From: Spironucleus salmonicida | Taxonomy: Eukaryota | Direction: 5' to 3' | Assembly (NCBI RefSeq): GCF_000497125.1 | Contig: NW_027150713.1 | Span: 1-33,199 of the forward strand | Length of the DNA stretch: 33,199 nt | Shown: piece after piece, positions 4,141 through 33,199 of the stretch | Layout of the letters: every line of letters begins with the position of its first letter | How positions within the stretch are numbered: the first letter of the stretch is position 1 | The notes under the pieces: model-generated | What the model saw: only the letters and a program-made list of their open reading frames with translations | Database searches by the model: none | Told to the model about the DNA's origin: nothing | Made by a program: the position numbers and the translations under genes

Positions 4141-4280
4141 GAGACCGTTCTGGAACAATGTTTAGAGTATTACATTCAAGAATCGATGCTTCGCAGGTCA
4201 TTACAGGTCCACATCGCAAATATCGCTTTGTGTCACGCTCTTCCTCGATATCCAAACCAATGGATCCACCCAATCCTATT
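4141..4280 (-). rRNA. 5.8S rRNA, about 140 nt
   Basis: Minus strand reads GGTGGATCCATTGGTTTGGATATCGAGGAAGAGCGTGAC...GCATCGATTCTTGAATGTAA, matching the 5.8S GGATC..TTGG, TCGATGAAGAACG and CATCGAATCTTTGAACGCA motifs. Its 3' end pairs with the LSU 5' end. Boundaries are approximate. Confidence 0.88.
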
Positions 4281-4328: not shown

Positions 4329-5823
4329 TAATGATCCTGCTGCAGGTTCCCCTACAGCAGCCTTGTTACGACTTCTCCTTCCTCTAGAAGAGCGGGCTCG
4401 CAATTGTTGCTACATAACGATACGAAATGTAGGTCCGAATAACTCACCAGATCTTCCCAATCAGTAGGAGCGACGGGCGGTGTGTACAAGGGGTAGGGAC
4501 GTAATCAGCGTAGATTCATAACCTACACTTACTAGACATTCCTCATTTATGAAGGATAATTTCAACCTTCAAGCCTAACCACGACAAGTTTTAATGAACT
4601 GCCACCATTTTCAGGGAAGCAACACGATGAACCTGCCATTGTAGTACGCGTGCGGCCTAGGGCTTCTAAGGGCATCACAGACCTGTTTTTGCCTCTGCCT
4701 TCCTCTAGTTCATCACTAGCAGTCTCAGATAATTAATCTGATAGAGGTCTCGTTCGTTATCGCAATAAAGCAGACAATTTAAATCACGGACTAAGAACGG
4801 CCATGCACCACCAACAACTTAATCATGAAAGATCACTCATCTGTCAATCCTCAAAGCTTCTGGGCCTAGTAAGATTTGCGTGTTGAGTCAAATTGAGCCG
4901 CAGACTCCACGTCTGGTGGTACCTCTCCGTCAATCCCTTCAAGTTTCAACCTTGCGATCATACTTCCCCCAGAGTCTGAAACCTTACGATTTCTCTTGGC
5001 AAATGAAGTAAAAACCCCATCAGCTAGGCGACATCGTTTAGGGTCAGGAATAAAACGGTTTCTAATCGTCGTCTATCCCCTGACTTTAGTTCTTGATCGT
5101 GATACTTAGACTGCGTTGGGAGCCTCCGCTACCGTTGGTCTTCGATAGATCATCCTATTTCACCTGTCCCTATCGAGTACCCCAAACTACGCCAAATACC
5201 GCATTATAATTTCATACTATAAAAACAGTTAAGTAGTTATAAACACTTAGATTTACTTATAGTGAAAAAGAAAATAAACTACGAACTTTTTAACTGCAGC
5301 AACACAATAGAATACTCTCCGTGTCGGAATTACCGCGGCTGCTGGCACCGAGCTTTCCCACGAATAACCGGTTAGCTTAGATATAACAGGCCCTAGATGG
5401 TGTACAAAAGTACCCTTCATTTCTTGTCACTGCCTCGTAACGAATACATTGGGCAATTTCCGCGCCTGCTGCCTTCCTTAGATGTATGAGCTGTTTCTCA
5501 TGCTCATTCTCCGGAGTCAAACCCTAATTCCCCGTAAGCGTCGAATCCTTGGTAGGCAAATACCCCACCAACGTAAGATGATGCTGCAGTGGCAGATATG
5601 CAAACGTACTTACTATTATCTTTAGTAGAATACTAAACATAGTTCATGTATTACTAACAGATTTTCCGTTACTATCCAACGAAATACATTGCATGTACTA
5701 ACCACTGATAAATGAGCTGTTCGCCGTCTTCGCTCCACAATAATGAATATAACTGTCTACACATAGGCATGCATGGCTTAATCTTTAAGAGAAGTATGCT
5801 ATCCTGGCAGGGTCAACCAGATA
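4329..5823 (-). rRNA. Small-subunit (18S-type) rRNA, about 1495 nt
   Basis: Minus strand has 5' TATCTGGTTGACCCTGCCAG (5804-5823), GTGCCAGCAGCCGCGGTAATTCC (about 5326-5348), TGTACACACCGCCCGT (4473-4488) and 3' GTCGTAACAAGG...GGATCATTA. The short length and AATTCCGACAC after the 530 loop resemble hexamitid diplomonad SSU as I recall it (not searched). Confidence 0.98.
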
Positions 5824-6076
5824 ATAATAATGAAAAAATTTCAAAAGTAAAATTAAGTAGTACCCGAATATTAATAAATATTAATTATATTTTTTAACAT
5901 ATTTTGTTAAATATATCCCGCATTAAAAATGCGATTGAATGATGATTAAAAGGTGATATTAATAGTTAACCCCGCTAATAGGGGTGTTTTGTTGTATTCT
6001 ATAGTTAAAAAGATACTTGTAGTTATAGAATACATTGCATAATGAAGAAATGTGTTGAATAAATATATTTATATGA

Positions 6077-6534
6077 TTTTAGGTAGGGCGGCATTATTTT
6101 AGGTAAGGGTGGTTTTAGGTAAGGGTGGTTTAAGGAAGGGTGGTTTAAGGAAGGGTGGTTTAAGGGAATGGAGGTATTATTTTAGGTAAGGGTGGTTTTA
6201 GGTAAGGGTGGTTTAAGGAAGGGTGGTTTAAGGGAATGGAGGTATTATTTTAGGTAAGGGTGGTTTTAGGTAAGGGTGGTTTAAGGAAGGGTGGTTTAAG
6301 GGAATGGAGGTATTATTTTAGGTAAGGGTGGTTTTAGGTAAGGGTGGTTTTAAGGAAGGGTGATTTAAGGGAATGGAGGTATTATTTTAGGTAAGGGTGG
6401 TTTTAGGTAAGGGTGGTTTTAAGGAAGGGTGATTTAAGGAAGGGTGATTTAAGGGAATGGAGGTATTATTTTAGGTAAGGGTGGTTTTAGGTAAGGGTGA
6501 TTTAAGGAAGGGTGATTTAAGGGAAGGGTGATTT
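6077..6534. repeat. G-rich intergenic-spacer minisatellite with higher-order structure
   Basis: 15-16-bp monomers TTTTAGGTAAGGGTGG, TTTAAGGAAGGGTGG/A and TTTAAGGGAATGGAGG are arranged in blocks of about 67-83 bp, each starting at (G/C)ATTATTTTAGG. The array begins about 250 nt upstream of the SSU 5' end. Confidence 0.92.
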
Positions 6535-6644
6535 ATTTTTAAGAGAACAAAAAAATACATAATTGCAACTAAGCACTATTCTACTTCCGTAGTTAAAATT
6601 ACTACAAAATTCTTGATAATACAGTTATTCTAATTCATCATTTT

Positions 6645-6982
6645 GTTATTTGTGACAACAAATTAGACGAATCTAATTATCATGTCAAATCTCAATGTCT
6701 ATTAAAAGCCTTCGCGCATAATCCTGAATGACTATCATTACCCCCTAAGTATGAAGTTTAAAATTTCACCGGTTAAGGTTATCGACCAACTTGCAGGTAT
6801 TTAAGCGATAGCAGCCGCAGAACATATGCAGCTTAAAATAGACATTATGCTCGTTATCCGAAAATAACGAGTTGAGATAATCCAACCTAAAATAAGATCT
6901 AGACATAGGGATAGGTCACAAGAGACAAGCATCATCCGCAGGCCTCTTCCTCACTATCGATAGTAGGTCAGTTTCAAATAAC
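6645..6982 (-). ncRNA. Candidate structured RNA domain A (paralog of domain B), family unknown
   Basis: Closed by GTTATTTG/CAAATAAC (6645-6652/6975-6982). It has UUCG hairpins at 6661-6678 and 6850-6871, and the stem AATGTCTATT/AATAGACATT (6694-6703/6837-6846) encloses a 133-nt insert. Stems covary with domain B. Confidence 0.6.
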
Positions 6983-7114
6983 GCTAATCTGATTCAGAAT
7001 GATAGTATTATCAATACAATTGCATAATCTATTTTATTTAGGGGGACGTGTTAATTTTACAATTGGGTCTGTCCCAAAACTTCATAGTAGATCGTAATCT
7101 CCACTATCTACTCA

Positions 7115-7404
7115 CACTATCTGGAAACAACAAACCAGACGAATCTGGTTCAAAGCACTACAAGGGTGAATACCGACACGTAATCTTTTAGCGTGGTCAA
7201 ACCACCGTTACGAAGAGTTCTGTTATGTAGTGCAGATGTCAAATTTTAATGTCTATAAATAGACATTCTTGTTATCCGAAAATAACAAGTTAAATAAATT
7301 AACTTAAGATAAGATCTTGCGATGCATAGGGACAGATCATAAGGAGCATGCATCGCTGCATGCCACATGGTCACTATCGATAATAAGCTTCATTTCAAAT
7401 AGTG
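7115..7404 (-). ncRNA. Candidate structured RNA domain B (paralog of domain A), family unknown
   Basis: Closed on minus by CACTATTTG/CAGATAGTG (7396-7404/7115-7123, one G-U). It has UUCG hairpins at 7133-7150 and 7268-7289, a GCGATGCAT/ATGCATCGC stem, and an insert closed by GCACTACA/TGTAGTGC (7155-7162/7226-7233). Confidence 0.6.
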
Positions 7405-7569
7405 CTAGTAGATTGTGTTATCTAAATATAGATAATTTTCTACTATTGGGTTTCTCTCCTAATCAGTAATACCTTTCCTTATTACCGATAGTGGGACCCG
7501 ACCCAATTGGTCCCACATATATATAGTCAATTTCAAGAGGACAGCTTAGATGCCTGGGTATATTAGTTA

Positions 7570-8005
7570 AACTTCATTTTTTCTTACAATATTTTTTTCT
7601 AAAAATAGATTCATCAATAATATATTATGTATAATATAAAATTTAGTAAAATAAATAATAGTTATTATATATTTATAATTATATTTTTATTTATCTTATA
7701 CTATAAATAGAATAAACATTTAAAATATCATTTATATATAAATATTACTAATATATTATATATTATTGAGTTTTTAGATTAATTTTCAGTTTCTAATATT
7801 TTAAAAATATATATATACTACTATATAATAATGTGTTATTACTATTAATCTTATATTCAATATAATAATATGTTTAATTAATTTTTCACTTTAATAATTT
7901 TAATAATTTATAAATATGTATTTATATATATTATATAACACATATTTTTTAAAATATATAAATTTTACAAATAATTATAAAATTTAATAAAATTTAATAT
8001 CTATG
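7570..8005. other. Extremely AT-rich low-complexity tract
   Basis: Almost only A/T, with TA runs. It has a sharp boundary with the GC-richer structured island at about 7565. Confidence 0.7.
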
Positions 8006-8518
8006 TATAATAATAGCATAATGCAAAACTATATTTTGAAAGTCTGCAAAAAGTATACTTATTTTTTCAGTATTGTATATATACTCCGCCACTATATTAA
8101 TATGTATTGTATTAAAATTTACACCAACTTATCATATGCATAAAAAGTAGCTACTTTATATATAAATCATATATAATAATAGCATAATGCAAAACTATAT
8201 TTTGAAAGTCTGCAAAAAGTATACTTATTTTTTCAGTATTGTATATATACTCCGCCACTATATTAATATGTATTGTATTAAAATTTACACCAACTTATCA
8301 TATGCATAAAAAGTAGCTATTTTATATATAAATCATATATAATAATAGCATAATGCAAAACTATATTTTGAAAGTCTGCAAAAAGTATACTTATTTTTTC
8401 AGTATTGTATATATACTCCGCCACTATATTAATATGTATTGTATTAAAATTTACACCAACTTATCATATGCATAAAAAGTAGCTACTTTATATATAAATC
8501 ATATATAATAATAGCATA
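8006..8518. repeat. Tandem repeat, 3.1 x 166 bp
   Basis: TATAATAATAGCATA starts at 8006, 8172, 8338 and 8504. Copies look identical except CTACTTT vs CTATTTT in copy 2. Confidence 0.95.
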
Positions 8519-9565
8519 CACTTTGAAATATGTGTATTATATTATTATATATTAATAATCATAACCTTATAATTTCAAATGAGGCATATAGGTAACCCGT
8601 AATTAGGATAAATATATAATTAACTATGTTATTATAACCTTATATATATATAAAGTACTAATAATATAGTTAATTATAACTATATTTAACATAATTATAG
8701 TATTCTTTAATGTGTGTATTAATTTTATTATTAATTCTTAAACAAACATTACGACGTGCCTCGCAACTCCGGGTGCAGTTTATAGTTGTTGGTATAAATA
8801 TAATTATCTATAGAAATTTGAACTTTTTCATCTTATGCCAGCAAACTTCATTTTTAGCTTCGAATTGAAAAGTAAAAAAGTAGGTTTTGGTGGCATAGAC
8901 GATATCACCATCCACTAGGTGGGTACATAATATTAGCATCATATGTATGATTAGAATTAAGCTTAAGATCCATTTTTGTCATCATAGCAATGTTAAATTA
9001 AATTCGAGATTTCAAAAAATTAGGCCATCCTAAAATTCAACTTTCAACAATCATTCCCCTATATGATCACGGTGATTAGGAATATTTAAATATATATATG
9101 GATGCTAATTGCTTTTTAGCATCTTTACATCCTATTATTGTATCAAATAATAGGAGTTAGTGTACATGAATCTAGTATATTTTATAATGTTACGTGCTTA
9201 ACATTTGCGTGCTCATATACTTCTATATCTCTTAATAGTTATTTTCATCACTTTGTGTCAATCATTTATCTAGTAATTTATTCATTTAATACCATGCAGT
9301 TTTATCTCCATTGAATAAGGAATGTAAAAATCGGAGAGATTACAAATATGTATATAATGATTATTATATATTTAAATTAATATATAATATTTTGAGATAA
9401 ATCAAAAATAAATTGCTTGCATTTGGAGTGTTAAAACTATATAAATTATTAATATCAATATATTCTAGTTATTATTTTTTTTACGTTTTATTGACGTACT
9501 AATTTATTGTAGTAGTATATCTTTTTATAAGTTTGTTGTTAAAATATAGATTATAAACATAAATC

Positions 9566-12500
9566 TATAATATTATGTTTTTTCCACTTTATTTTCTATT
9601 CCTTACTTAATATTATATAGTATATAATAACTTTTAGCTTTTGAAAACTACGAAACTATATATCTCCCACTTCTGCTGTTGTATACTTAAATCTTTTTAA
9701 GTATTATAGCCAATATATAGTATAATATAATTGTGTATAGTAGAAGTTTCCTACGTATGGGTAACGGCAATTATAAATTTTTAACGATGCCTCTGGGCTT
9801 AAGTCCAGATAATGGCATAATAGTTTGGCCGAAAGTTGAAATCCCAAAAAAGGTCAATTGTGAGTGGAGGCTCAGTTTCATTTTTAGCAAGACAGAACTG
9901 TCTGTTACAATAAAAATGAAACAATGAAAATTAATTTAACAAAAATAAAATAGAAAACGACCTTTTATCATCAGGTCGGCCAAAACTATTATCGATTAAA
10001 ATTTTTGAGTAGGAATTTTAAAAAAGTGATTTTTCAAACATTCACTAGGCGACTAGCAATTGAGGGTCCTTGTGTTAACACATTTTGGTGGTGCTAGATG
10101 ACTTCTCGGGATGACCTTGTGCGAAACATGATCTAGGTTTGTCAGAGAGATGAGAACCGACATAAATATTATATATTCTATATATCGACAATATATGCAT
10201 AAATTAGTTTTTTCTACGTATACAATTCTGCAAAAACTGAAATGTTGATATTTGTTGAGGTTACTAGTTTTTTAGTTTCTGTATTGTGAAAACAATACAA
10301 AATTTAATATAATATAAAAAATATACAAATATTTTTGTATAATATAAAATTAAGATTTAGATTTATGTATTAGTATTATATATATTACGAATATTAACGT
10401 TTTTCAATTTACTGTATATGTTAGTTTCTGGCAGAGATAGAAAAGGAAAAAATATAGTATATATATAATAGATATATATATTCTATATTGTATTTTAAAA
10501 GTACTTATTTTTCAAACGATTCGTCCAAAAAGGTCAAAAAATCATTATTTTGACACCTGTTGTGGAGTGGTACTTTTTGAAAAAAGGAGTTATGTAATTA
10601 TTATATAGGATTATGTTAAACTTATTTTTTTCAAATTTTCACACACTTTGTTATGGTGTAGTATTATGCAATTTTTCTATTGTTTAAAGTGGTGAAAAAA
10701 ATAATATATATATATTATAGGTATATTTTTTTGGTTTATAATATTGGAAAGATTTGTATTTTATATTAGTTTTGTACATAATTACATCAAAATTATACAT
10801 ACAAAATTACTATAAAATTCAGTTTCTACAGTTTCTATAGATTATTCAATATACAGACATATTATATTTACATATATATTAATAAATGTATTTTAAAGTA
10901 CTCAAATTTATCAAACAAACCCATCAACACTATCACAAAACTCACTATAAAATTTTATTAAAATTTTAAAGCCTATACTTGTATGGTTAAAATAAAACTT
11001 TTGTATTTTAAAAGTATATATATATAATAATATGTTTTAGAGTGGCAATATTTTTAGTATATTCTGGTATATAATATTATGTTTTTTCCACTTTATTTTC
11101 TATTCCTTACTTAATATTATATAGTATATAATAACTTTTAGCTTTTGAAAACTACGAAACTATATATCTCCCACTTCTGCTGTTGTATACTTAAATCTTT
11201 TTAAGTATTATAGCCAATATATAGTATAATATAATTGTGTATAGTAGAAGTTTCCTACGTATGGGTAACGGCAATTATAAATTTTTAACGATGCCTCTGG
11301 GCTTAAGTCCAGATAATGGCATAATAGTTTGGCCGAAAGTTGAAATCCCAAAAAAGGTCAATTGTGAGTGGAGGCTCAGTTTCATTTTTAGCAAGACAGA
11401 ACTGTCTGTTACAATAAAAATGAAACAATGAAAATTAATTTAACAAAAATAAAATAGAAAACGACCTTTTATCATCAGGTCGGCCAAAACTATTATCGAT
11501 TAAAATTTTTGAGTAGGAATTTTAAAAAAGTGATTTTTCAAACATTCACTAGGCGACTAGCAATTGAGGGTCCTTGTGTTAACACATTTTGGTGGTGCTA
11601 GATGACTTCTCGGGATGACCTTGTGCGAAACATGATCTAGGTTTGTCAGAGAGATGAGAACCGACATAAATATTATATATTCTATATATCGACAATATAT
11701 GCATAAATTAGTTTTTTCTACGTATACAATTCTGCAAAAACTGAAATGTTGATATTTGTTGAGGTTACTAGTTTTTTAGTTTCTGTATTGTGAAAACAAT
11801 ACAAAATTTAATATAATATAAAAAATATACAAATATTTTTGTATAATATAAAATTAAGATTTAGATTTATGTATTAGTATTATATATATTACGAATATTA
11901 ACGTTTTTCAATTTACTGTATATGTTAGTTTCTGGCAGAGATAGAAAAGGAAAAAATATAGTATATATATAATAGATATATATATTCTATATTGTATTTT
12001 AAAAGTACTTATTTTTCAAACGATTCGTCCAAAAAGGTCAAAAAATCATTATTTTGACACCTGTTGTGGAGTGGTACTTTTTGAAAAAAGGAGTTATGTA
12101 ATTATTATATAGGATTATGTTAAACTTATTTTTTTCAAATTTTCACACACTTTGTTATGGTGTAGTATTATGCAATTTTTCTATTGTTTAAAGTGGTGAA
12201 AAAAATAATATATATATATTATAGGTATATTTTTTTGGTTTATAATATTGGAAAGATTTGTATTTTATATTAGTTTTGTACATAATTACATCAAAATTAT
12301 ACATACAAAATTACTATAAAATTCAGTTTCTACAGTTTCTATAGATTATTCAATATACAGACATATTATATTTACATATATATTAATAAATGTATTTTAA
12401 AGTACTCAAATTTATCAAACAAACCCATCAACACTATCACAAAACTCACTATAAAATTTTATTAAAATTTTAAAGCCTATACTTGTATGGTTAAAATAAA

Positions 12501-15500
12501 ACTTTTGTATTTTAAAAGTATATATATATAATAATATGTTTTAGAGTGGCAATATTTTTAGTATATTCTGGTATATAATATTATGTTTTTTCCACTTTAT
12601 TTTCTATTCCTTACTTAATATTATATAGTATATAATAACTTTTAGCTTTTGAAAACTACGAAACTATATATCTCCCACTTCTGCTGTTGTATACTTAAAT
12701 CTTTTTAAGTATTATAGCCAATATATAGTATAATATAATTGTGTATAGTAGAAGTTTCCTACGTATGGGTAACGGCAATTATAAATTTTTAACGATGCCT
12801 CTGGGCTTAAGTCCAGATAATGGCATAATAGTTTGGCCGAAAGTTGAAATCCCAAAAAAGGTCAATTGTGAGTGGAGGCTCAGTTTCATTTTTAGCAAGA
12901 CAGAACTGTCTGTTACAATAAAAATGAAACAATGAAAATTAATTTAACAAAAATAAAATAGAAAACGACCTTTTATCATCAGGTCGGCCAAAACTATTAT
13001 CGATTAAAATTTTTGAGTAGGAATTTTAAAAAAGTGATTTTTCAAACATTCACTAGGCGACTAGCAATTGAGGGTCCTTGTGTTAACACATTTTGGTGGT
13101 GCTAGATGACTTCTCGGGATGACCTTGTGCGAAACATGATCTAGGTTTGTCAGAGAGATGAGAACCGACATAAATATTATATATTCTATATATCGACAAT
13201 ATATGCATAAATTAGTTTTTTCTACGTATACAATTCTGCAAAAACTGAAATGTTGATATTTGTTGAGGTTACTAGTTTTTTAGTTTCTGTATTGTGAAAA
13301 CAATACAAAATTTAATATAATATAAAAAATATACAAATATTTTTGTATAATATAAAATTAAGATTTAGATTTATGTATTAGTATTATATATATTACGAAT
13401 ATTAACGTTTTTCAATTTACTGTATATGTTAGTTTCTGGCAGAGATAGAAAAGGAAAAAATATAGTATATATATAATAGATATATATATTCTATATTGTA
13501 TTTTAAAAGTACTTATTTTTCAAACGATTCGTCCAAAAAGGTCAAAAAATCATTATTTTGACACCTGTTGTGGAGTGGTACTTTTTGAAAAAAGGAGTTA
13601 TGTAATTATTATATAGGATTATGTTAAACTTATTTTTTTCAAATTTTCACACACTTTGTTATGGTGTAGTATTATGCAATTTTTCTATTGTTTAAAGTGG
13701 TGAAAAAAATAATATATATATATTATAGGTATATTTTTTTGGTTTATAATATTGGAAAGATTTGTATTTTATATTAGTTTTGTACATAATTACATCAAAA
13801 TTATACATACAAAATTACTATAAAATTCAGTTTCTACAGTTTCTATAGATTATTCAATATACAGACATATTATATTTACATATATATTAATAAATGTATT
13901 TTAAAGTACTCAAATTTATCAAACAAACCCATCAACACTATCACAAAACTCACTATAAAATTTTATTAAAATTTTAAAGCCTATACTTGTATGGTTAAAA
14001 TAAAACTTTTGTATTTTAAAAGTATATATATATAATAATATGTTTTAGAGTGGCAATATTTTTAGTATATTCTGGTATATAATATTATGTTTTTTCCACT
14101 TTATTTTCTATTCCTTACTTAATATTATATAGTATATAATAACTTTTAGCTTTTGAAAACTACGAAACTATATATCTCCCACTTCTGCTGTTGTATACTT
14201 AAATCTTTTTAAGTATTATAGCCAATATATAGTATAATATAATTGTGTATAGTAGAAGTTTCCTACGTATGGGTAACGGCAATTATAAATTTTTAACGAT
14301 GCCTCTGGGCTTAAGTCCAGATAATGGCATAATAGTTTGGCCGAAAGTTGAAATCCCAAAAAAGGGCAATTGTGAGTGGAGGCTCAGTTTCATTTTTAGC
14401 AAGACAGAACTGTCTGTTACAATAAAAATGAAACAATGAAAATTAATTTAACAAAAATAAAATAGAAAACGACCTTTTATCATCAGGTCGGCCAAAACTA
14501 TTATCGATTAAAATTTTTGAGTAGGAATTTTAAAAAAGTGATTTTTCAAACATTCACTAGGCGACTAGCAATTGAGGGTCCTTGTGTTAACACATTTTGG
14601 TGGTGCTAGATGACTTCTCGGGATGACCTTGTGCGAAACATGATCTAGGTTTGTCAGAGAGATGAGAACCGACATAAATATTATATATTCTATATATCGA
14701 CAATATATGCATAAATTAGTTTTTTCTACGTATACAATTCTGCAAAAACTGAAATGTTGATATTTGTTGAGGTTACTAGTTTTTTAGTTTCTGTATTGTG
14801 AAAACAATACAAAATTTAATATAATATAAAAAATATACAAATATTTTTGTATAATATAAAATTAAGATTTAGATTTATGTATTAGTATTATATATATTAC
14901 GAATATTAACGTTTTTCAATTTACTGTATATGTTAGTTTCTGGCAGAGATAGAAAAGGAAAAAATATAGTATATATATAATAGATATATATATTCTATAT
15001 TGTATTTTAAAAGTACTTATTTTTCAAACGATTCGTCCAAAAAGGTCAAAAAATCATTATTTTGACACCTGTTGTGGAGTGGTACTTTTTGAAAAAAGGA
15101 GTTATGTAATTATTATATAGGATTATGTTAAACTTATTTTTTTCAAATTTTCACACACTTTGTTATGGTGTAGTATTATGCAATTTTTCTATTGTTTAAA
15201 GTGGTGAAAAAAATAATATATATATATTATAGGTATATTTTTTTGGTTTATAATATTGGAAAGATTTGTATTTTATATTAGTTTTGTACATAATTACATC
15301 AAAATTATACATACAAAATTACTATAAAATTCAGTTTCTACAGTTTCTATAGATTATTCAATATACAGACATATTATATTTACATATATATTAATAAATG
15401 TATTTTAAAGTACTCAAATTTATCAAACAAACCCATCAACACTATCACAAAACTCACTATAAAATTTTATTAAAATTTTAAAGCCTATACTTGTATGGTT

Positions 15501-18500
15501 AAAATAAAACTTTTGTATTTTAAAAGTATATATATATAATAATATGTTTTAGAGTGGCAATATTTTTAGTATATTCTGGTATATAATATTATGTTTTTTC
15601 CACTTTATTTTCTATTCCTTACTTAATATTATATAGTATATAATAACTTTTAGCTTTTGAAAACTACGAAACTATATATCTCCCACTTCTGCTGTTGTAT
15701 ACTTAAATCTTTTTAAGTATTATAGCCAATATATAGTATAATATAATTGTGTATAGTAGAAGTTTCCTACGTATGGGTAACGGCAATTATAAATTTTTAA
15801 CGATGCCTCTGGGCTTAAGTCCAGATAATGGCATAATAGTTTGGCCGAAAGTTGAAATCCCAAAAAAGGGCAATTGTGAGTGGAGGCTCAGTTTCATTTT
15901 TAGCAAGACAGAACTGTCTGTTACAATAAAAATGAAACAATGAAAATTAATTTAACAAAAATAAAATAGAAAACGACCTTTTATCATCAGGTCGGCCAAA
16001 ACTATTATCGATTAAAATTTTTGAGTAGGAATTTTAAAAAAGTGATTTTTCAAACATTCACTAGGCGACTAGCAATTGAGGGTCCTTGTGTTAACACATT
16101 TTGGTGGTGCTAGATGACTTCTCGGGATGACCTTGTGCGAAACATGATCTAGGTTTGTCAGAGAGATGAGAACCGACATAAATATTATATATTCTATATA
16201 TCGACAATATATGCATAAATTAGTTTTTTCTACGTATACAATTCTGCAAAAACTGAAATGTTGATATTTGTTGAGGTTACTAGTTTTTTAGTTTCTGTAT
16301 TGTGAAAACAATACAAAATTTAATATAATATAAAAAATATACAAATATTTTTGTATAATATAAAATTAAGATTTAGATTTATGTATTAGTATTATATATA
16401 TTACGAATATTAACGTTTTTCAATTTACTGTATATGTTAGTTTCTGGCAGAGATAGAAAAGGAAAAAATATAGTATATATATAATAGATATATATATTCT
16501 ATATTGTATTTTAAAAGTACTTATTTTTCAAACGATTCGTCCAAAAAGGTCAAAAAATCATTATTTTGACACCTGTTGTGGAGTGGTACTTTTTGAAAAA
16601 AGGAGTTATGTAATTATTATATAGGATTATGTTAAACTTATTTTTTTCAAATTTTCACACACTTTGTTATGGTGTAGTATTATGCAATTTTTCTATTGTT
16701 TAAAGTGGTGAAAAAAATAATATATATATATTATAGGTATATTTTTTTGGTTTATAATATTGGAAAGATTTGTATTTTATATTAGTTTTGTACATAATTA
16801 CATCAAAATTATACATACAAAATTACTATAAAATTCAGTTTCTACAGTTTCTATAGATTATTCAATATACAGACATATTATATTTACATATATATTAATA
16901 AATGTATTTTAAAGTACTCAAATTTATCAAACAAACCCATCAACACTATCACAAAACTCACTATAAAATTTTATTAAAATTTTAAAGCCTATACTTGTAT
17001 GGTTAAAATAAAACTTTTGTATTTTAAAAGTATATATATATAATAATATGTTTTAGAGTGGCAATATTTTTAGTATATTCTGGTATATAATATTATGTTT
17101 TTTCCACTTTATTTTCTATTCCTTACTTAATATTATATAGTATATAATAACTTTTAGCTTTTGAAAACTACGAAACTATATATCTCCCACTTCTGCTGTT
17201 GTATACTTAAATCTTTTTAAGTATTATAGCCAATATATAGTATAATATAATTGTGTATAGTAGAAGTTTCCTACGTATGGGTAACGGCAATTATAAATTT
17301 TTAACGATGCCTCTGGGCTTAAGTCCAGATAATGGCATAATAGTTTGGCCGAAAGTTGAAATCCCAAAAAAGGGCAATTGTGAGTGGAGGCTCAGTTTCA
17401 TTTTTAGCAAGACAGAACTGTCTGTTACAATAAAAATGAAACAATGAAAATTAATTTAACAAAAATAAAATAGAAAACGACCTTTTATCATCAGGTCGGC
17501 CAAAACTATTATCGATTAAAATTTTTGAGTAGGAATTTTAAAAAAGTGATTTTTCAAACATTCACTAGGCGACTAGCAATTGAGGGTCCTTGTGTTAACA
17601 CATTTTGGTGGTGCTAGATGACTTCTCGGGATGACCTTGTGCGAAACATGATCTAGGTTTGTCAGAGAGATGAGAACCGACATAAATATTATATATTCTA
17701 TATATCGACAATATATGCATAAATTAGTTTTTTCTACGTATACAATTCTGCAAAAACTGAAATGTTGATATTTGTTGAGGTTACTAGTTTTTTAGTTTCT
17801 GTATTGTGAAAACAATACAAAATTTAATATAATATAAAAAATATACAAATATTTTTGTATAATATAAAATTAAGATTTAGATTTATGTATTAGTATTATA
17901 TATATTACGAATATTAACGTTTTTCAATTTACTGTATATGTTAGTTTCTGGCAGAGATAGAAAAGGAAAAAATATAGTATATATATAATAGATATATATA
18001 TTCTATATTGTATTTTAAAAGTACTTATTTTTCAAACGATTCGTCCAAAAAGGTCAAAAAATCATTATTTTGACACCTGTTGTGGAGTGGTACTTTTTGA
18101 AAAAAGGAGTTATGTAATTATTATATAGGATTATGTTAAACTTATTTTTTTCAAATTTTCACACACTTTGTTATGGTGTAGTATTATGCAATTTTTCTAT
18201 TGTTTAAAGTGGTGAAAAAAATAATATATATATATTATAGGTATATTTTTTTGGTTTATAATATTGGAAAGATTTGTATTTTATATTAGTTTTGTACATA
18301 ATTACATCAAAATTATACATACAAAATTACTATAAAATTCAGTTTCTACAGTTTCTATAGATTATTCAATATACAGACATATTATATTTACATATATATT
18401 AATAAATGTATTTTAAAGTACTCAAATTTATCAAACAAACCCATCAACACTATCACAAAACTCACTATAAAATTTTATTAAAATTTTAAAGCCTATACTT

Positions 18501-21500
18501 GTATGGTTAAAATAAAACTTTTGTATTTTAAAAGTATATATATATAATAATATGTTTTAGAGTGGCAATATTTTTAGTATATTCTGGTATATAATATTAT
18601 GTTTTTTCCACTTTATTTTCTATTCCTTACTTAATATTATATAGTATATAATAACTTTTAGCTTTTGAAAACTACGAAACTATATATCTCCCACTTCTGC
18701 TGTTGTATACTTAAATCTTTTTAAGTATTATAGCCAATATATAGTATAATATAATTGTGTATAGTAGAAGTTTCCTACGTATGGGTAACGGCAATTATAA
18801 ATTTTTAACGATGCCTCTGGGCTTAAGTCCAGATAATGGCATAATAGTTTGGCCGAAAGTTGAAATCCCAAAAAAGGTCAATTGTGAGTGGAGGCTCAGT
18901 TTCATTTTTAGCAAGACAGAACTGTCTGTTACAATAAAAATGAAACAATGAAAATTAATTTAACAAAAATAAAATAGAAAACGACCTTTTATCATCAGGT
19001 CGGCCAAAACTATTATCGATTAAAATTTTTGAGTAGGAATTTTAAAAAAGTGATTTTTCAAACATTCACTAGGCGACTAGCAATTGAGGGTCCTTGTGTT
19101 AACACATTTTGGTGGTGCTAGATGACTTCTCGGGATGACCTTGTGCGAAACATGATCTAGGTTTGTCAGAGAGATGAGAACCGACATAAATATTATATAT
19201 TCTATATATCGACAATATATGCATAAATTAGTTTTTTCTACGTATACAATTCTGCAAAAACTGAAATGTTGATATTTGTTGAGGTTACTAGTTTTTTAGT
19301 TTCTGTATTGTGAAAACAATACAAAATTTAATATAATATAAAAAATATACAAATATTTTTGTATAATATAAAATTAAGATTTAGATTTATGTATTAGTAT
19401 TATATATATTACGAATATTAACGTTTTTCAATTTACTGTATATGTTAGTTTCTGGCAGAGATAGAAAAGGAAAAAATATAGTATATATATAATAGATATA
19501 TATATTCTATATTGTATTTTAAAAGTACTTATTTTTCAAACGATTCGTCCAAAAAGGTCAAAAAATCATTATTTTGACACCTGTTGTGGAGTGGTACTTT
19601 TTGAAAAAAGGAGTTATGTAATTATTATATAGGATTATGTTAAACTTATTTTTTTCAAATTTTCACACACTTTGTTATGGTGTAGTATTATGCAATTTTT
19701 CTATTGTTTAAAGTGGTGAAAAAAATAATATATATATATTATAGGTATATTTTTTTGGTTTATAATATTGGAAAGATTTGTATTTTATATTAGTTTTGTA
19801 CATAATTACATCAAAATTATACATACAAAATTACTATAAAATTCAGTTTCTACAGTTTCTATAGATTATTCAATATACAGACATATTATATTTACATATA
19901 TATTAATAAATGTATTTTAAAGTACTCAAATTTATCAAACAAACCCATCAACACTATCACAAAACTCACTATAAAATTTTATTAAAATTTTAAAGCCTAT
20001 ACTTGTATGGTTAAAATAAAACTTTTGTATTTTAAAAGTATATATATATAATAATATGTTTTAGAGTGGCAATATTTTTAGTATATTCTGGTATATAATA
20101 TTATGTTTTTTCCACTTTATTTTCTATTCCTTACTTAATATTATATAGTATATAATAACTTTTAGCTTTTGAAAACTACGAAACTATATATCTCCCACTT
20201 CTGCTGTTGTATACTTAAATCTTTTTAAGTATTATAGCCAATATATAGTATAATATAATTGTGTATAGTAGAAGTTTCCTACGTATGGGTAACGGCAATT
20301 ATAAATTTTTAACGATGCCTCTGGGCTTAAGTCCAGATAATGGCATAATAGTTTGGCCGAAAGTTGAAATCCCAAAAAAGGGCAATTGTGAGTGGAGGCT
20401 CAGTTTCATTTTTAGCAAGACAGAACTGTCTGTTACAATAAAAATGAAACAATGAAAATTAATTTAACAAAAATAAAATAGAAAACGACCTTTTATCATC
20501 AGGTCGGCCAAAACTATTATCGATTAAAATTTTTGAGTAGGAATTTTAAAAAAGTGATTTTTCAAACATTCACTAGGCGACTAGCAATTGAGGGTCCTTG
20601 TGTTAACACATTTTGGTGGTGCTAGATGACTTCTCGGGATGACCTTGTGCGAAACATGATCTAGGTTTGTCAGAGAGATGAGAACCGACATAAATATTAT
20701 ATATTCTATATATCGACAATATATGCATAAATTAGTTTTTTCTACGTATACAATTCTGCAAAAACTGAAATGTTGATATTTGTTGAGGTTACTAGTTTTT
20801 TAGTTTCTGTATTGTGAAAACAATACAAAATTTAATATAATATAAAAAATATACAAATATTTTTGTATAATATAAAATTAAGATTTAGATTTATGTATTA
20901 GTATTATATATATTACGAATATTAACGTTTTTCAATTTACTGTATATGTTAGTTTCTGGCAGAGATAGAAAAGGAAAAAATATAGTATATATATAATAGA
21001 TATATATATTCTATATTGTATTTTAAAAGTACTTATTTTTCAAACGATTCGTCCAAAAAGGTCAAAAAATCATTATTTTGACACCTGTTGTGGAGTGGTA
21101 CTTTTTGAAAAAAGGAGTTATGTAATTATTATATAGGATTATGTTAAACTTATTTTTTTCAAATTTTCACACACTTTGTTATGGTGTAGTATTATGCAAT
21201 TTTTCTATTGTTTAAAGTGGTGAAAAAAATAATATATATATATTATAGGTATATTTTTTTGGTTTATAATATTGGAAAGATTTGTATTTTATATTAGTTT
21301 TGTACATAATTACATCAAAATTATACATACAAAATTACTATAAAATTCAGTTTCTACAGTTTCTATAGATTATTCAATATACAGACATATTATATTTACA
21401 TATATATTAATAAATGTATTTTAAAGTACTCAAATTTATCAAACAAACCCATCAACACTATCACAAAACTCACTATAAAATTTTATTAAAATTTTAAAGC

Positions 21501-22999
21501 CTATACTTGTATGGTTAAAATAAAACTTTTGTATTTTAAAAGTATATATATATAATAATATGTTTTAGAGTGGCAATATTTTTAGTATATTCTGGTATAT
21601 AATATTATGTTTTTTCCACTTTATTTTCTATTCCTTACTTAATATTATATAGTATATAATAACTTTTAGCTTTTGAAAACTACGAAACTATATATCTCCC
21701 ACTTCTGCTGTTGTATACTTAAATCTTTTTAAGTATTATAGCCAATATATAGTATAATATAATTGTGTATAGTAGAAGTTTCCTACGTATGGGTAACGGC
21801 AATTATAAATTTTTAACGATGCCTCTGGGCTTAAGTCCAGATAATGGCATAATAGTTTGGCCGAAAGTTGAAATCCCAAAAAAGGGCAATTGTGAGTGGA
21901 GGCTCAGTTTCATTTTTAGCAAGACAGAACTGTCTGTTACAATAAAAATGAAACAATGAAAATTAATTTAACAAAAATAAAATAGAAAACGACCTTTTAT
22001 CATCAGGTCGGCCAAAACTATTATCGATTAAAATTTTTGAGTAGGAATTTTAAAAAAGTGATTTTTCAAACATTCACTAGGCGACTAGCAATTGAGGGTC
22101 CTTGTGTTAACACATTTTGGTGGTGCTAGATGACTTCTCGGGATGACCTTGTGCGAAACATGATCTAGGTTTGTCAGAGAGATGAGAACCGACATAAATA
22201 TTATATATTCTATATATCGACAATATATGCATAAATTAGTTTTTTCTACGTATACAATTCTGCAAAAACTGAAATGTTGATATTTGTTGAGGTTACTAGT
22301 TTTTTAGTTTCTGTATTGTGAAAACAATACAAAATTTAATATAATATAAAAAATATACAAATATTTTTGTATAATATAAAATTAAGATTTAGATTTATGT
22401 ATTAGTATTATATATATTACGAATATTAACGTTTTTCAATTTACTGTATATGTTAGTTTCTGGCAGAGATAGAAAAGGAAAAAATATAGTATATATATAA
22501 TAGATATATATATTCTATATTGTATTTTAAAAGTACTTATTTTTCAAACGATTCGTCCAAAAAGGTCAAAAAATCATTATTTTGACACCTGTTGTGGAGT
22601 GGTACTTTTTGAAAAAAGGAGTTATGTAATTATTATATAGGATTATGTTAAACTTATTTTTTTCAAATTTTCACACACTTTGTTATGGTGTAGTATTATG
22701 CAATTTTTCTATTGTTTAAAGTGGTGAAAAAAATAATATATATATATTATAGGTATATTTTTTTGGTTTATAATATTGGAAAGATTTGTATTTTATATTA
22801 GTTTTGTACATAATTACATCAAAATTATACATACAAAATTACTATAAAATTCAGTTTCTACAGTTTCTATAGATTATTCAATATACAGACATATTATATT
22901 TACATATATATTAATAAATGTATTTTAAAGTACTCAAATTTATCAAACAAACCCATCAACACTATCACAAAACTCACTATAAAATTTTATTAAAATTTT
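9566..22999. repeat. Tandem array, about 8.9 x 1504 bp (subtelomeric macrosatellite)
   Basis: Units start at 9566, 11070, 12574, 14078, 15582, 17086, 18590, 20094 and 21598, and the ORF track repeats with exact 1504 spacing. The only difference I noticed between copies is a T/G at unit position equivalent to 9854. Confidence 0.97.
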
Positions 23000-23755
23000 T
23001 TAACCCTTGTTTGAAGCTTATTATTAAAAATATCAAATAAAATTATTTTTAATATATATTATTATATGTTTTAAAATAAAATATTTACAATTAATTATTC
23101 TAGTTTCTTCTATAATTTGTGTGGCAATAATATATATATCTAAAATATACAATTATTTTCCTTTTTTAAGAGAGTATAATTTATTGAATATTACTATTAT
23201 ATTTGTATATTATATTAGTTGTTATAAGTTTTCCTTTTCTTTTTTACATTAATATAATTATAATTATATAAAATTAATAATTTTAAAATGGGTAATGATA
23301 ATAAAAATTAAAATGATCAAAAAAGTAAAGGAAATGGAAATTTATATTATTATATAATGAATATAATTTTATTAAAAAAAATAATGATCTATTCAGAGTT
23401 GAACCCAGTATTAGTAAAATTAAAAAAAATCGCTTATAACATCTAAACAAAAATTATTATTTATAGATTTTTGGAGTGGAAATATTTTTAAGAATTTAAA
23501 TAAATGGATATTATTATTATATATATTTAGATATACCATGGAAAGAAGAAATATTACGTATAATAAACAATAATATTAACAAATCAATTTATCGTAAAAA
23601 TGGATAATTAATAATTTCATATATATAAAATAGTACTAAAAATAGTCTCTAGAATATATTATATATAAAACTTTTTCTACCAGAAAAAGGAAGTATTGTA
23701 TAATACAATATAAAAATTATAATCCTATTTTTTTTTATAATTGAAAAATAATATG

Positions 23756-26700
23756 ATTATATATGAATAATATAGTGTTTGGTGATGCTAAAAAACTATT
23801 TAGAAATCTACAAAACCGATCTATTTTTAGAATTAACATTTTAGAATAAGTGTATATGATTATATAATAATATGTAGTTTGCCCAGAAAAAACGCTTCAT
23901 TTTTATGATTATAGATAATTTACTATTATAATAGGTTTGGTAACTTCCGGATTTTTAGCCAACTGTAGATGTATAGGTTTTTCCTTTCCTAAACATAACC
24001 TTTTGGTATTTTTTTCTAATAGTGATTCTGCATTGTTATAATATATTATCTGGGCCCAAAAGTGTTACACAAAAAAGTGATTTTTTTAATTTTACTATGA
24101 TAATAGATATATATTGAATAGGTGGTGTTTGTATTATTGAAAAAAAAGTGTGGGTAGGGGTGCGACGATTTTCAAAAAAAGTGAAAAATGGCCTTCCCTT
24201 CCACAGTATATCTATTATATATTAAATAGAAGGATGCATTTGGGTCCAAAAAAGATTTGCCCTTCCAAAAAAAGATTTGAATTTGGCTGTTTAGTATTTG
24301 TGGAAGGGACCCTGTTTTTTTCCTATATAAATATATATATGTTAATATAGAACCCGGGCGGATCGAAAAAAATCTAGGTATTTATACAAACGAGTTATGA
24401 AAAGCGCACTTTCTTGTTTTGACCTTTTTGCAGCCACGATCCATTAATCTTGGGAAAACTTATGGAGTGATATTAATATATATATGTAGATAATTTTTTC
24501 CCCCGAATTCAGATCATTGAAATCAATACAAATTGGTGATCTTAACAAACTTCATTTTTTAACCCATTTTTGCCCAAGCTCGACCCACCTTCAACAGAAA
24601 CCGAAAAAAAAAATTATTGACTTATAAAAGTCATTAAACAATATATATGCAACTTTTTCTACACCAAAAAAAATGCTTGCTAAAATGAAGGCCCAAAAAG
24701 TTATTTTTCAAAACTGCTCATTTTAGCTAAAAGTCACCACAATGATTATAATCACTTAAAACGCGTTTCTACGACCATCTTTATGCCAAAATCGGTCTTT
24801 AGAAGGATTCGATATCTCATGTTAAATACTATGTTTTGAAAATAAATCGATAGCTTATTTTAGAGGGTCAGAGTATAGTCGTCCGTTCCTCGGAATATTC
24901 AATAAACTTTAAGTTTTTTGATTTTCAAAGTTTAGAAAGGGAGAAGTGGACAGTGAATATTATGGGTTGAAAAATGATATATAATTTGCATACTTTTTTT
25001 CAGTCCTTTTTACGAAGTGGAAGACCGACCAGCATAAATCGTTAAATCCACTTTTATCTTGGCTATTTTTATAGTAAAAACTAATTTAAAAGTTTTTCAA
25101 TGTATATATATCTATGACGCATATAACCCTCTTACAAATTTCCTGTAGTATTTTTGAACCTTGAGAAAAAAAAAGCAAAAAGTCAAAATAAGGTTTTTTG
25201 TATACTTTTGTTAATATAAAAGAGATGAAGCGGTGTCATTTTGTGACAACTTTTTCTGGTTAATATAATTGTATTATATATAGATTATTCCACTCCAAAA
25301 GATTTTTAAAGATTGAGCTAAGAACGAACAATTATTTTTTTAACTCACTAATTCTCCCTTTTTTCATTCCTTTTTTTTTTAAAGCAGAGGGAATGGAAAT
25401 TTGTCTTATTATGATAAATAATATAAAAAGATATTAATAATCCCCCGATTTTAGTGTCATATTTTCATAATTTCAAAAATTGATTATTTTGAGAAATTAA
25501 AATTTAATTCTCGCCTCGAAATGACATGAATTTTTAAATTTCACTATGAGACTCTATATTTATTATAGACAATATAATATATTTGTAAATTTAAAAAATT
25601 TACGAATCAAAAAATGAAAGTCAAGACAGTGAAAAAATGAAAAATCCATGTGGTCAAGTTTTGGCATTTGAATATGATTTGTAAATTTCACACGTTTTTT
25701 TGGTACAATTGTGGTAGGCATAGCGAAAGCGATACCTTCTAGAGCCTCTAGCGTATTCGGTCCTGGGTTCAAACCTCGCCAAAAAAATCAAAAAGATAGT
25801 GCTTTTGGATATGGATTTCGGCCACTTTGGCCAAAATTCAAAATTTGAAGTCGAATTTTGGACCAAATTTTGGCTAGTTAGTAGATTTTGCGAATTTTTG
25901 GAGAAAGTCTGGAGCTACACGTCTTTCGATATTTTTCATGATAAATGACGTTTTCACCCACTAGACTGTGGAAAGAAGCCAAAATAATCTCTGAATTAGG
26001 AGTGGAAAACGAGTGAAAACCAGAGGTGGAATGGAAAAAGTGCAAATTTCTTCGTTTTGGATAAAAATTAAAGATGGTATGTTGCTACTAATTTTCAAAA
26101 TTTGGGAGACAGACTCATGACCCATTTTTGGATTTTGCTCCATTTTTCTCCATTTTTAGAGCGGAAAGTTTATATATATATATAATAATTGATTTGATAA
26201 ACTTTTCTTACCTATTTTTCCAAAAATTGGAGTGGTGATTTTTAGTTAAGCCATAGGTCACTGGCAAAATCTGAAATTTTGTGAAAACATCAAATTTGGA
26301 AGGGAAAACGTCATATACTACTATTTATAGGCTAAATAGTTGTATGGTGAGATACACAAATGGAAAGAAATGAATATTCGAAATACATTATTTAAATCAT
26401 ATTATTTTTTCTACGATTTTTCTTCAAAATAAGTTAATATAATAGGAATATATTAATCTTTTTTTTTAATTTGTCCGGCTTTTTTTTAATACTTGTAAAT
26501 ATATATATAATAATGTTATTATTGTTATTCACGACACTATTTTGTCGAAAATTGGTTCTTCAAAATGCTAAAACTTACGAGCAGCTATATTACGGATATA
26601 TATTAACATTATTTTTTAAATGTACTCAATTTTTATTCTATTTTTAGTATTTTATGAATATATATTGAATATAATTCTGTTACAATTCCTTTTCATTATT

Positions 26701-32700: not shown

Positions 32701-33199
32701 ATGTATTTATATATTTAGAATGGTGGACTTTGTAATATAATTTTACTGGAACTATCTTCACTTCACATCAATATTAATTTAAATAATATAATATAGATAT
32801 AGGAATAGAAAATTTTGCCTATTATATAGGCGATTATCAGGTCAAGACCGTTGAATTTTGAAAATTGATATATATAATTGAAATTAATAAATATAAATAT
32901 AAGTAATTTCTCAAAAACTCGTAAAAAAGAAACTTACTATGGGGGAAAAAATAATACTTTATTAATATTATATCAAAATACAACTAATGAGATTATCCAG
33001 TCATCTTAAGAAAAAGTCAAATTAATTTCATTTTTCATTCCACTTGAGGGCCCCTTTCTAAAATTAGGAATGGAAAAGGAATGGAAAATATATGCTAATG
33101 GACTGACAACAATGAAACGAAAATTTAATTTGTTTTTGAATATTCCGTAAGCATGTGGAGTGGTAAACACTACTTGCAATAAATCTAAAAATAGATTTT
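23756..33199. repeat. Tandem duplication of a 5186-bp unit (copy 1 23756-28941; copy 2 28942 to window end, incomplete)
   Basis: ATTATATATGAATAATATAGTGTTTGGTG occurs at 23756 and 28942. All four small ORFs recur at +5186, and the window end 33191-33199 matches 28005-28013. Confidence 0.96.

Follow-up and report, generated by a model that had tools for sequence, protein, structure and literature searches.

We analyzed a 33,199-nt stretch of DNA from Spironucleus salmonicida (contig NW_027150713.1; hereafter the window) and found that an island of about 1 kb at 6560-7520, upstream of a ribosomal RNA (rRNA) gene at a chromosome end, is a tandem duplication of a ~460-nt module. The two copies, units A and B, are predicted to be independently folding modules and not one giant knotted 1-kb fold. 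Pairing within them has been maintained by selection, and the minus strand, which is the sense strand of the rRNA genes, is the better fit for a structured RNA. We tentatively read the island as a structured part of the upstream transcribed spacer of the ribosomal DNA (rDNA), carried in a long RNA polymerase I (Pol I) leader or in a spacer transcript. The two units were delimited by direct repeats, blastn and an anchored alignment:

6592-7049 (borders approximate), minus strand: unit A.
7050-7520 (approximate), minus strand: unit B.

Several comparisons revealed the duplication. Direct-repeat families in the island are spaced 417-421, 472 and 554 nt apart, and blastn matched 6836-6986 to 7257-7407 at 74.5% identity. 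We used an anchored alignment for comparing the units because MAFFT misaligned the left halves when given whole units. In the 204 columns aligned with confidence, A and B share 78% identity, a divergence of ~22%. No additional copy of the module was found in the window with blastn (E < 0.01, word size 7). Two candidates for a partial third unit were rejected. On the B side, 7504-7534 aligned to the start of B, and 62 of 300 shuffles did equally well; on the A side, 6554-6596 aligned to the end of A and was equalled by 212 of 1000 shuffles.

Each unit, when folded alone, closes via a long interrupted stem, and hairpins radiate from the junction. The minimum free energies (MFEs) were -107.9 (plus strand) and -120.3 (minus) for unit A and -134.8 (plus) and -144.7 (minus) for unit B. 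For the whole island, the fold z-scores were -6.15 (plus strand) and -5.92 (minus), and none of 20 shuffles matched this stability on either strand. A partition function computed over the whole 961 nt gave 130-139 expected pairs within A, ~147 within B and only ~6 between A and B, out of 287-304. Expressed as shares, ~96% of the expected base pairs are intra-unit and ~2% are inter-unit. These values speak against a proposal in the initial annotation of this DNA, in which A, the linker, B and the flanks were joined in a single ornate fold. The elements predicted in the two units are, from left to right:

6594-6652, minus strand: left arm of the A closing stem, which pairs with 6975-7036.
6661-6678, minus strand: H1 of A, 7 bp, capped on the minus strand by a UUCG loop.
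6694-6846, minus strand: H2 of A, with a 9-bp base identical to that of B and a loop that holds an A-only insertion.
6850-6871, minus strand: H3 of A, 8-9 bp, minus-strand loop U[UUCG]G.
6872-6970, minus strand: conserved core in A, containing three more helices on the minus strand.
6975-7036, minus strand: right arm of the A closing stem, with two both-sided compensations relative to B among the inner 9 bp.
7060-7126, minus strand: left arm of the B closing stem, which pairs with 7393-7509.
7133-7150, minus strand: H1 of B, 7-8 bp, with a UUCG loop.
7155-7233, minus strand: B-only insertion of ~80 nt between H1 and H2, with its own 8-bp stem GCACTACA/TGTAGTGC.
7248-7267, minus strand: H2 of B, with the same 9-bp stem as A and a loop centre of only 2 nt.
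7268-7289, minus strand: H3 of B, homologous to H3 of A.
7290-7392, minus strand: B part of the conserved core, including a GCGA-capped 8-bp hairpin at 7345-7364.
7393-7509, minus strand: right arm of the B closing stem, interrupted by local hairpins at 7418-7435 and 7463-7488.

The closing stem of A contains a 10-bp helix, 6613-6622/7005-7014 (pairing probability 0.96-0.97), and a second helix, 6644-6652/6975-6983 (0.85-0.98). Its 40-nt arms are 73% complementary. In B, the outermost helix, 7060-7069/7500-7509 (0.99), is followed by 7071-7076/7492-7497, then by 7084-7091/7439-7446 (0.96-0.97), and finally by 7106-7112/7407-7413 and 7115-7123/7396-7404 (0.87-0.96). The A-only insertion (~135 nt, 6703-6837) sits inside the H2 loop and is itself stem-closed, folding on the minus strand at -38.3 kcal/mol (z -2.23).

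We examined conservation of pairing through a transfer test, in which the MFE structure of one unit alone was imposed on the other over the 204 aligned columns. The null for the A-to-B direction was obtained by permuting B letters only between columns with an identical letter in A. On the minus strand, B kept 64 of the 67 pairs transferred from A (null 51.4 +/- 2.4; 0 of 5000 permutations), with seven both-sided compensations (null 1.66 +/- 1.15; 0 of 5000). On the plus strand, 54 of 62 pairs were kept (P = 0.0014), with six both-sided compensations (P = 0.0018). Transfer from B to A kept 53 of 60 pairs on the minus strand (P = 0.018) and 48 of 59 on the plus strand (P = 0.019); the both-sided compensations numbered six (P = 0.0006) and five (P = 0.0096), respectively. 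RNAalifold consensus energies, compared with column-shuffled alignments, gave z = -7.66 on the minus strand and -5.19 on the plus strand (0 of 100 shuffles each). A pair-count shuffle test (144 of 500) had no power with two rows, and a slide control gave 100% versus 35-48% paired.

The compensations are found in several helices. Two adjacent T-A pairs in H1 of A are C-G pairs in B, a C-G pair is exchanged with T-A in H3, and a further compensation lies in the helix flanking H2. The inner closing stem contributes two more, with G6645-C6982 in A corresponding to A7116-T7403 in B and T6646-A6981 corresponding to C7117-G7402. In this stem, the flanks of the right arm leave no ambiguity in its alignment. 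For the left arm a 1-nt indel has to be introduced, and its four differences are then all transitions. The compensated arms are ~330 nt apart in A and ~280 nt apart in B, and this separation of ~300 nt rules out hairpin-templated mutation of a quasi-palindrome as the source of the closing-stem changes. We conclude that pairing was maintained by selection while the copies diverged. The initial annotation had viewed the island as acting as one large RNA or switching between folds. What is borne out is a conserved secondary structure with genuine helices whose arms are 280-430 nt apart, and a role as RNA is the most likely one for the island.

The preference for the minus strand comes from the consensus folds and the loops. 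The consensus fold has nine helices on the minus strand (-41.6 kcal/mol) and five on the plus strand (-30.8). For the core (6838-6990 versus 7259-7411), RNAalifold, which selects structures that maximize kept pairs and so qualifies any comparison between strands, returned 25 minus-strand pairs at -19.7 kcal/mol, none of them broken in either unit, and 19 plus-strand pairs at -12 kcal/mol. All six one-sided changes in the minus-strand core are kept as G-U exchanges, and two further changes are both-sided. The unit MFEs contain 14 hairpin loops on the minus strand, of which four are UUCG (those of H1 and H3 in A and B) and one is GCGA; UUCG or GNRA loops account for none of the 19 on the plus strand.

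We also counted inverted matches in the island. The initial annotation had listed seven long-range pairs and a hairpin, 7491-7498/7509-7516, and all eight are exact reverse complements. It had also named shuffled sequences as the control that could undo its model, and the shuffles did not give similar counts. Inverted matches of at least 8 nt in 6560-7520 number 33, against 14.0 +/- 3.6 in 300 dinucleotide shuffles, none of which reached the observed value. The corresponding counts are 15 (3.8 +/- 1.9 shuffled) for at least 9 nt and 8 (2.0 +/- 1.4) for at least 10 nt. Counted by distance, 23 matches have arms at least 100 nt apart (7.25 +/- 2.76; 0 of 500 shuffles), a roughly threefold excess, and there are 7 local matches (3.29 +/- 1.84; 31 of 500).

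Sorting the 23 long-range matches by inspection gave ~5 helices of the predicted fold, ~6 echoes, in which one arm of a hairpin is complementary to the opposite arm of its homologue in the other unit, 6 words made of A and T only, and ~6 that were left over. The leftover number equals the chance expectation, and this group includes five of the seven pairs in the initial annotation. Four of those seven derive from the (C)ACTAT(C)/(G)ATAGT(G) motif family; no hexamer family is commoner in the island than CACTATC/GATAGTG (8 and 7 occurrences).

The setting of the island bears on what it may do. The window begins with a perfect 4-nt (ACCT)n array at 2-493, which is (TAGG)n on the G-strand and marks the window as a chromosome end, followed by four 40-nt repeats at 524-686 (99% matches). 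A genome report (PMC9509377) gives (TAGG)n as the telomere repeat of S. salmonicida and places its 18S, 5.8S and 28S genes on one small contig with 15-fold read coverage. If that description applies here, the rDNA locus would be present in many copies. The genes for the small-subunit (SSU) and large-subunit (LSU) rRNAs and the array next to them are:

5823 to 4329, minus strand: SSU rRNA gene, 1495 nt, matching Rfam RF01960 at 1172.8 bits over the full model length.
4100 to 1169, minus strand: LSU rRNA gene, matching Rfam over the full model length.
6097-6535, G-rich on the plus strand: 16/68-nt tandem array (unit TTTTAGGTAAGGGTGG) between the island and the rRNA gene.

A 5.8S-like stretch at 4280-4145 scored 35.8 bits, under the Rfam gathering score of 42, and is flanked by internal transcribed spacers (ITSs) of ~48 nt towards the SSU and ~44 nt towards the start of the LSU model. 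A bacterial LSU model aligned the same stretch (4145-4280) contiguously. The reduced rRNAs, the tiny ITS regions and the AT-rich spacer are consistent with a diplomonad. Proceeding upstream from the SSU gene in the rRNA sense, one meets 270 nt of AT-rich DNA, the 440-nt array, the island, which begins 737 nt from the SSU 5' end, and long tandem repeats. The GC content of the island is 34-36% and falls sharply from 0.36 to 0.13 just past 7520. We favor an upstream transcribed spacer on the basis of this sharp edge at 7520 and of the position of the island, 0.7-1.7 kb upstream of an rRNA gene that is solitary and points toward the telomere.

Two versions of this spacer can be envisaged, and in both the RNA would probably be produced from the minus strand, in the same direction as the SSU and LSU genes. 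A long Pol I leader, or 5' external transcribed spacer (ETS), extending from ~7517 to 5824, could begin with the island. Alternatively, a spacer transcript could arise from it immediately upstream of the rRNA gene. The ends of each copy would pair in an interrupted closing stem from which at least five hairpins (H1, H2, H3 and a three-helix core) would radiate. The RNA would fold co-transcriptionally into two independent domains, each copy having gained its own stem-closed insertion in the manner of expansion segments. These domains may act as landing platforms for proteins or ribonucleoproteins (RNPs) and be discarded later. The stretch TATATATATGTGGGAC (minus strand, 7530 to 7505) may resemble Pol I initiators of plants and protists.

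Known spacers offer partial parallels. Like the 5' ETS of eukaryotic pre-rRNA, of which the helices of the yeast 5' ETS are an example, the island lies upstream of the SSU gene on the rRNA-sense strand and is structured, non-coding, fast-evolving and built of independent helical domains. Unlike a 5' ETS, it is separated from the SSU gene by a structure-less array of 440 nt, and it would be very long beside ITSs of ~45 nt. Hairpin-forming transcripts are known from rDNA spacer subrepeats. Intergenic spacer subrepeats and Pol I spacer transcripts (the spacer promoters of Xenopus and Drosophila and the promoter RNA of mouse) resemble the island in that units a few hundred bases long stand in tandem just upstream of the rRNA gene. 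The island differs in comprising only two units, which are much more diverged (78% identity), form large stem-closed domains with compensatory changes and show no similarity to the gene-proximal region. The units accordingly contain no recognizable promoter copy, as judged against 5824-6096, with the true promoter position uncertain.

A number of observations weigh against a transcribed spacer. Eight sequencing runs from two studies hold 92-100% of the words of the island; none is recorded as RNA, and four are guessed to be RNA. A 1.7-kb leader is out of keeping with a reduced rDNA in which the ITS regions are so small. Between the island and the SSU gene lie the 440-nt array, C-rich on the minus strand, and 270 nt of AT-rich DNA, and minus-strand RNA from the array has zero predicted structure (MFE 0.0 in 200-nt windows). 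The island shows no similarity to the SSU-proximal segment 5824-6096 (score 26 versus 24.2 +/- 3.1 for shuffles) and therefore gives no sign of a duplicated gene promoter. The covariation comes from only two paralogous sequences, with structures predicted from those same sequences. With respect to strand, the whole-island z-scores are alike (-6.15 versus -5.92), and one-sided changes favor the minus strand as a trend only (11 of 18 kept versus 7 of 23 on the plus strand). Segments of the rRNA genes have no excess of exact 8-mers (6 versus 4.5 and 2 versus 4.5), which makes the abundance of perfect matches in the island atypical of old structured RNAs. One AT-rich control segment was also in excess (80 versus 46.7 +/- 7.6). 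With no excess in rRNA segments and an excess in this control, exact 8-mers are a poor proxy for RNA structure.

Several features near the rRNA gene deserve mention in their own right. The array at 6097-6535 is telomere-like, in the orientation opposite to that of the terminal telomere. With a C-rich array at its left and a G-rich array at its right, the rDNA segment 1-6535 resembles a self-contained linear unit. Immediately upstream of the SSU gene, 270 nt (5800-6099) have a fold z-score of about -3 on the minus strand only (-0.7 to -1.2 on the plus strand), and this fold may represent the true short pre-rRNA leader.

A mobile origin for the island is unlikely in our view. The units would be two adjacent copies of an element, such as a non-autonomous transposon or the truncated ends of a retroelement, that landed by the rDNA, where repeats accumulate, with their structure having been selected in active masters. 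Diverged, selected masters would also yield covariation between copies. Both units end in inverted arms (40 nt, 73% complementary, in A; 10+6+8 bp in B), and the insertion peculiar to each unit has a foldback-like character of its own. The 25 kb around them is rich in repeats and has no recognizable gene. In microsporidia, a different lineage, rRNA genes and transposable elements are reported to occur together (PMC12449221). The units also resemble miniature inverted-repeat transposable elements in size, in their terminal inverted arms and in their strong predicted fold on both strands. They differ from such elements in that the interior combines a closing stem with several local, conserved hairpins and is not one simple foldback. 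Furthermore, the window contains no other copy, no target-site duplication was seen by eye at the arm ends (the unit ends being imprecise), no poly(A) or simple-repeat tail occurs at the unit ends, and no protein or reverse transcriptase signal lies nearby.

The conserved structure and the strand signals would look the same if the units were two paralogous stand-alone genes for non-coding RNAs of an undescribed family, transcribed independently of the rRNA gene. Each unit is self-contained and stem-closed, and its size is typical of RNase P, signal recognition particle (SRP) or telomerase-like RNAs. We consider such genes doubtful: no Rfam family matched across the units at E = 1 or better, no promoter or terminator elements were recognized, and the head-to-tail arrangement without a spacer argues for one transcript or none.

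The dyads of the island could instead act at the level of DNA, as duplex or cruciform, with no functional RNA involved. The element might then consist of protein-binding subrepeats, a replication origin, a fork barrier or a satellite. Several properties fit this idea, including the over-representation of CACTATC/GATAGTG in both orientations, the perfect palindromes ACTATCGATAGT (6953-6964) and TATCGATA (7375-7382), the equal fold z-scores on the two strands and an excess of perfect 8-10-mers that rRNA genes do not show. There is also a parallel in the rDNA 5' non-transcribed spacer of Tetrahymena, where two imperfect tandem ~430-bp domains (1 and 2) act as origins; the island likewise has two imperfect tandem copies of ~450 bp upstream of a telomere-linked rRNA gene. 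The Tetrahymena domains act as duplex DNA via A/T-rich elements, whereas the island has helices with G-U-tolerant, strand-asymmetric covariation. Three features are specific to RNA and weigh against a DNA-level element: compensated changes in a helix with arms ~300 nt apart, conservation that is asymmetric toward one strand via G-U-compatible changes, and UUCG and GNRA loops on one strand only. We therefore regard it as rather improbable.

The pseudoknotted architecture of the initial annotation fared worst. In that model the whole 1 kb forms one pseudoknotted RNA or a switch, with the A insert contacting the A 3' arm, the A/B junction and the B 5' arm, and the 7500 loop docking on 7060-7069. 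Two of its seven pairs, 7060/7500 and 7084/7439, belong to the predicted fold, in the closing stem of B (probability 0.96-1.00 on both strands). The other five, which comprise the three A-insert pairs, 7101/7487 and 6572/7398, have probabilities of at most 0.001 in a nested-ensemble calculation that does not score pseudoknots and has tertiary contacts outside its reach. Paralogue comparison cannot test these five because their arms lie in unit-specific inserts or flanks. Once fold helices and duplication echoes are removed, however, the number of such pairs is no greater than chance, and a cluster of three adjacent non-overlapping arms within 32 nt, as at 6731-6759, appeared in 76 of 1000 shuffles. 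The hairpin at 7491-7516 has a probability of 0.004 on the plus strand and 0.000 on the minus strand, being out-competed because its 5' arm and loop (7492-7509) form the 10+6-bp closing helix with 7060-7076. It forms, with the 7060/7500 helix, a pair of true alternative conformers, and a docking contact mediated by its loop is not supported. Although its pairs are exact, the model is very improbable, given that the A insert is absent from B, so that the module does not conserve these contacts, and that only ~2% of expected pairs link the units.

We searched for known families that might account for the island. Only LSU and SSU rRNA pass the gathering threshold of Rfam 15 in the window, and no ribozyme, RNase P/MRP, SRP, small nuclear RNA or telomerase model matched 5800-8100 at E values up to 10. 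The absence of a ribozyme match at that level led us to reject a satellite with a self-cleaving ribozyme (hammerhead, twister or hepatitis delta virus-like, among others). The best hit in the island, a match to the C/D small nucleolar RNA snoR10 at 6613-6688 on the minus strand, was rejected at 25.8 bits (gathering score 65; E = 1.2) and is not conserved in B. This segment, in A only, has an AUGAUGA box and a terminal stem. A telomerase RNA should have a conserved single-stranded template of at least 1.5 telomere repeats of (TAGG)n. The sole template-like 6-mer, ACCUAC (minus strand, 6968 to 6963), is in A, is base-paired in the MFE structure, is absent from the homologous site in B and occurs at chance level by simple arithmetic; telomerase RNA was rejected.

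Searches beyond the window and for proteins were also negative. A 31-base degenerate pattern over H2/H3 had no match in metagenome or viral contigs. A 20-base H1 pattern hit two metagenome loci, which match the pattern only and do not form the hairpin, and we attribute them to chance. With the standard code, no open reading frame (ORF) of at least 90 aa exists other than in the rDNA and telomere. With genetic code 6, all six frames are open in this AT-rich DNA (182 ORFs), and none of the 16 longest ORFs matched Pfam. According to one report (PMC6679479), Spironucleus does not conserve the 3'-end motif of Giardia non-coding RNAs.

The DNA beyond the island is dominated by repeats. A 166-bp tandem repeat (8006-8518; 3.1 copies, 99%) adjoins a cluster of AT-rich palindromes at 8494-8700, with overlapping 40-nt arms at 8608-8685. 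These palindromes have the strongest local fold z-scores in the neighborhood (-4.4 to -5.9). A 1504-bp unit is repeated nine times head-to-tail at 9566-23000, with 100% identity over 300-nt reference stretches; it contains no ORF of at least 90 aa (standard code) and no Pfam match (code 6). The remaining segment, 23714-33199, is a two-copy direct repeat with a spacing of 5186 bp and 94% identity over a reference stretch. It has sub-blocks of 30-33% GC and no recognizable coding sequence.

Our tentative preference for a structured upstream spacer RNA has consequences for the biology of diplomonads. To our knowledge, many expected non-coding RNAs have not been found in this lineage, and the Pol I start on a telomere-linked rRNA gene is not known in these reduced eukaryotes. 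A bolder view, which we hold to be improbable, is that the modules belong to an undescribed family of ~460-nt structured RNAs, present next to the rRNA gene at many chromosome ends of a diplomonad, in diverged pairs, and working as independent functional RNAs instead of discarded spacer. Such RNAs might serve as a scaffold regulating Pol I or subtelomeric chromatin, or take part in the biogenesis of ribosomes or telomeres. Should the minus-strand RNA exist, the island would be among the few covariation-supported structured non-coding elements in a diplomonad-like genome, and it would mark where Pol I transcription of the telomere-linked rRNA gene begins. The two paralogues, with their different helix insertions, provide a natural experiment on how the domains of a spacer RNA evolve.

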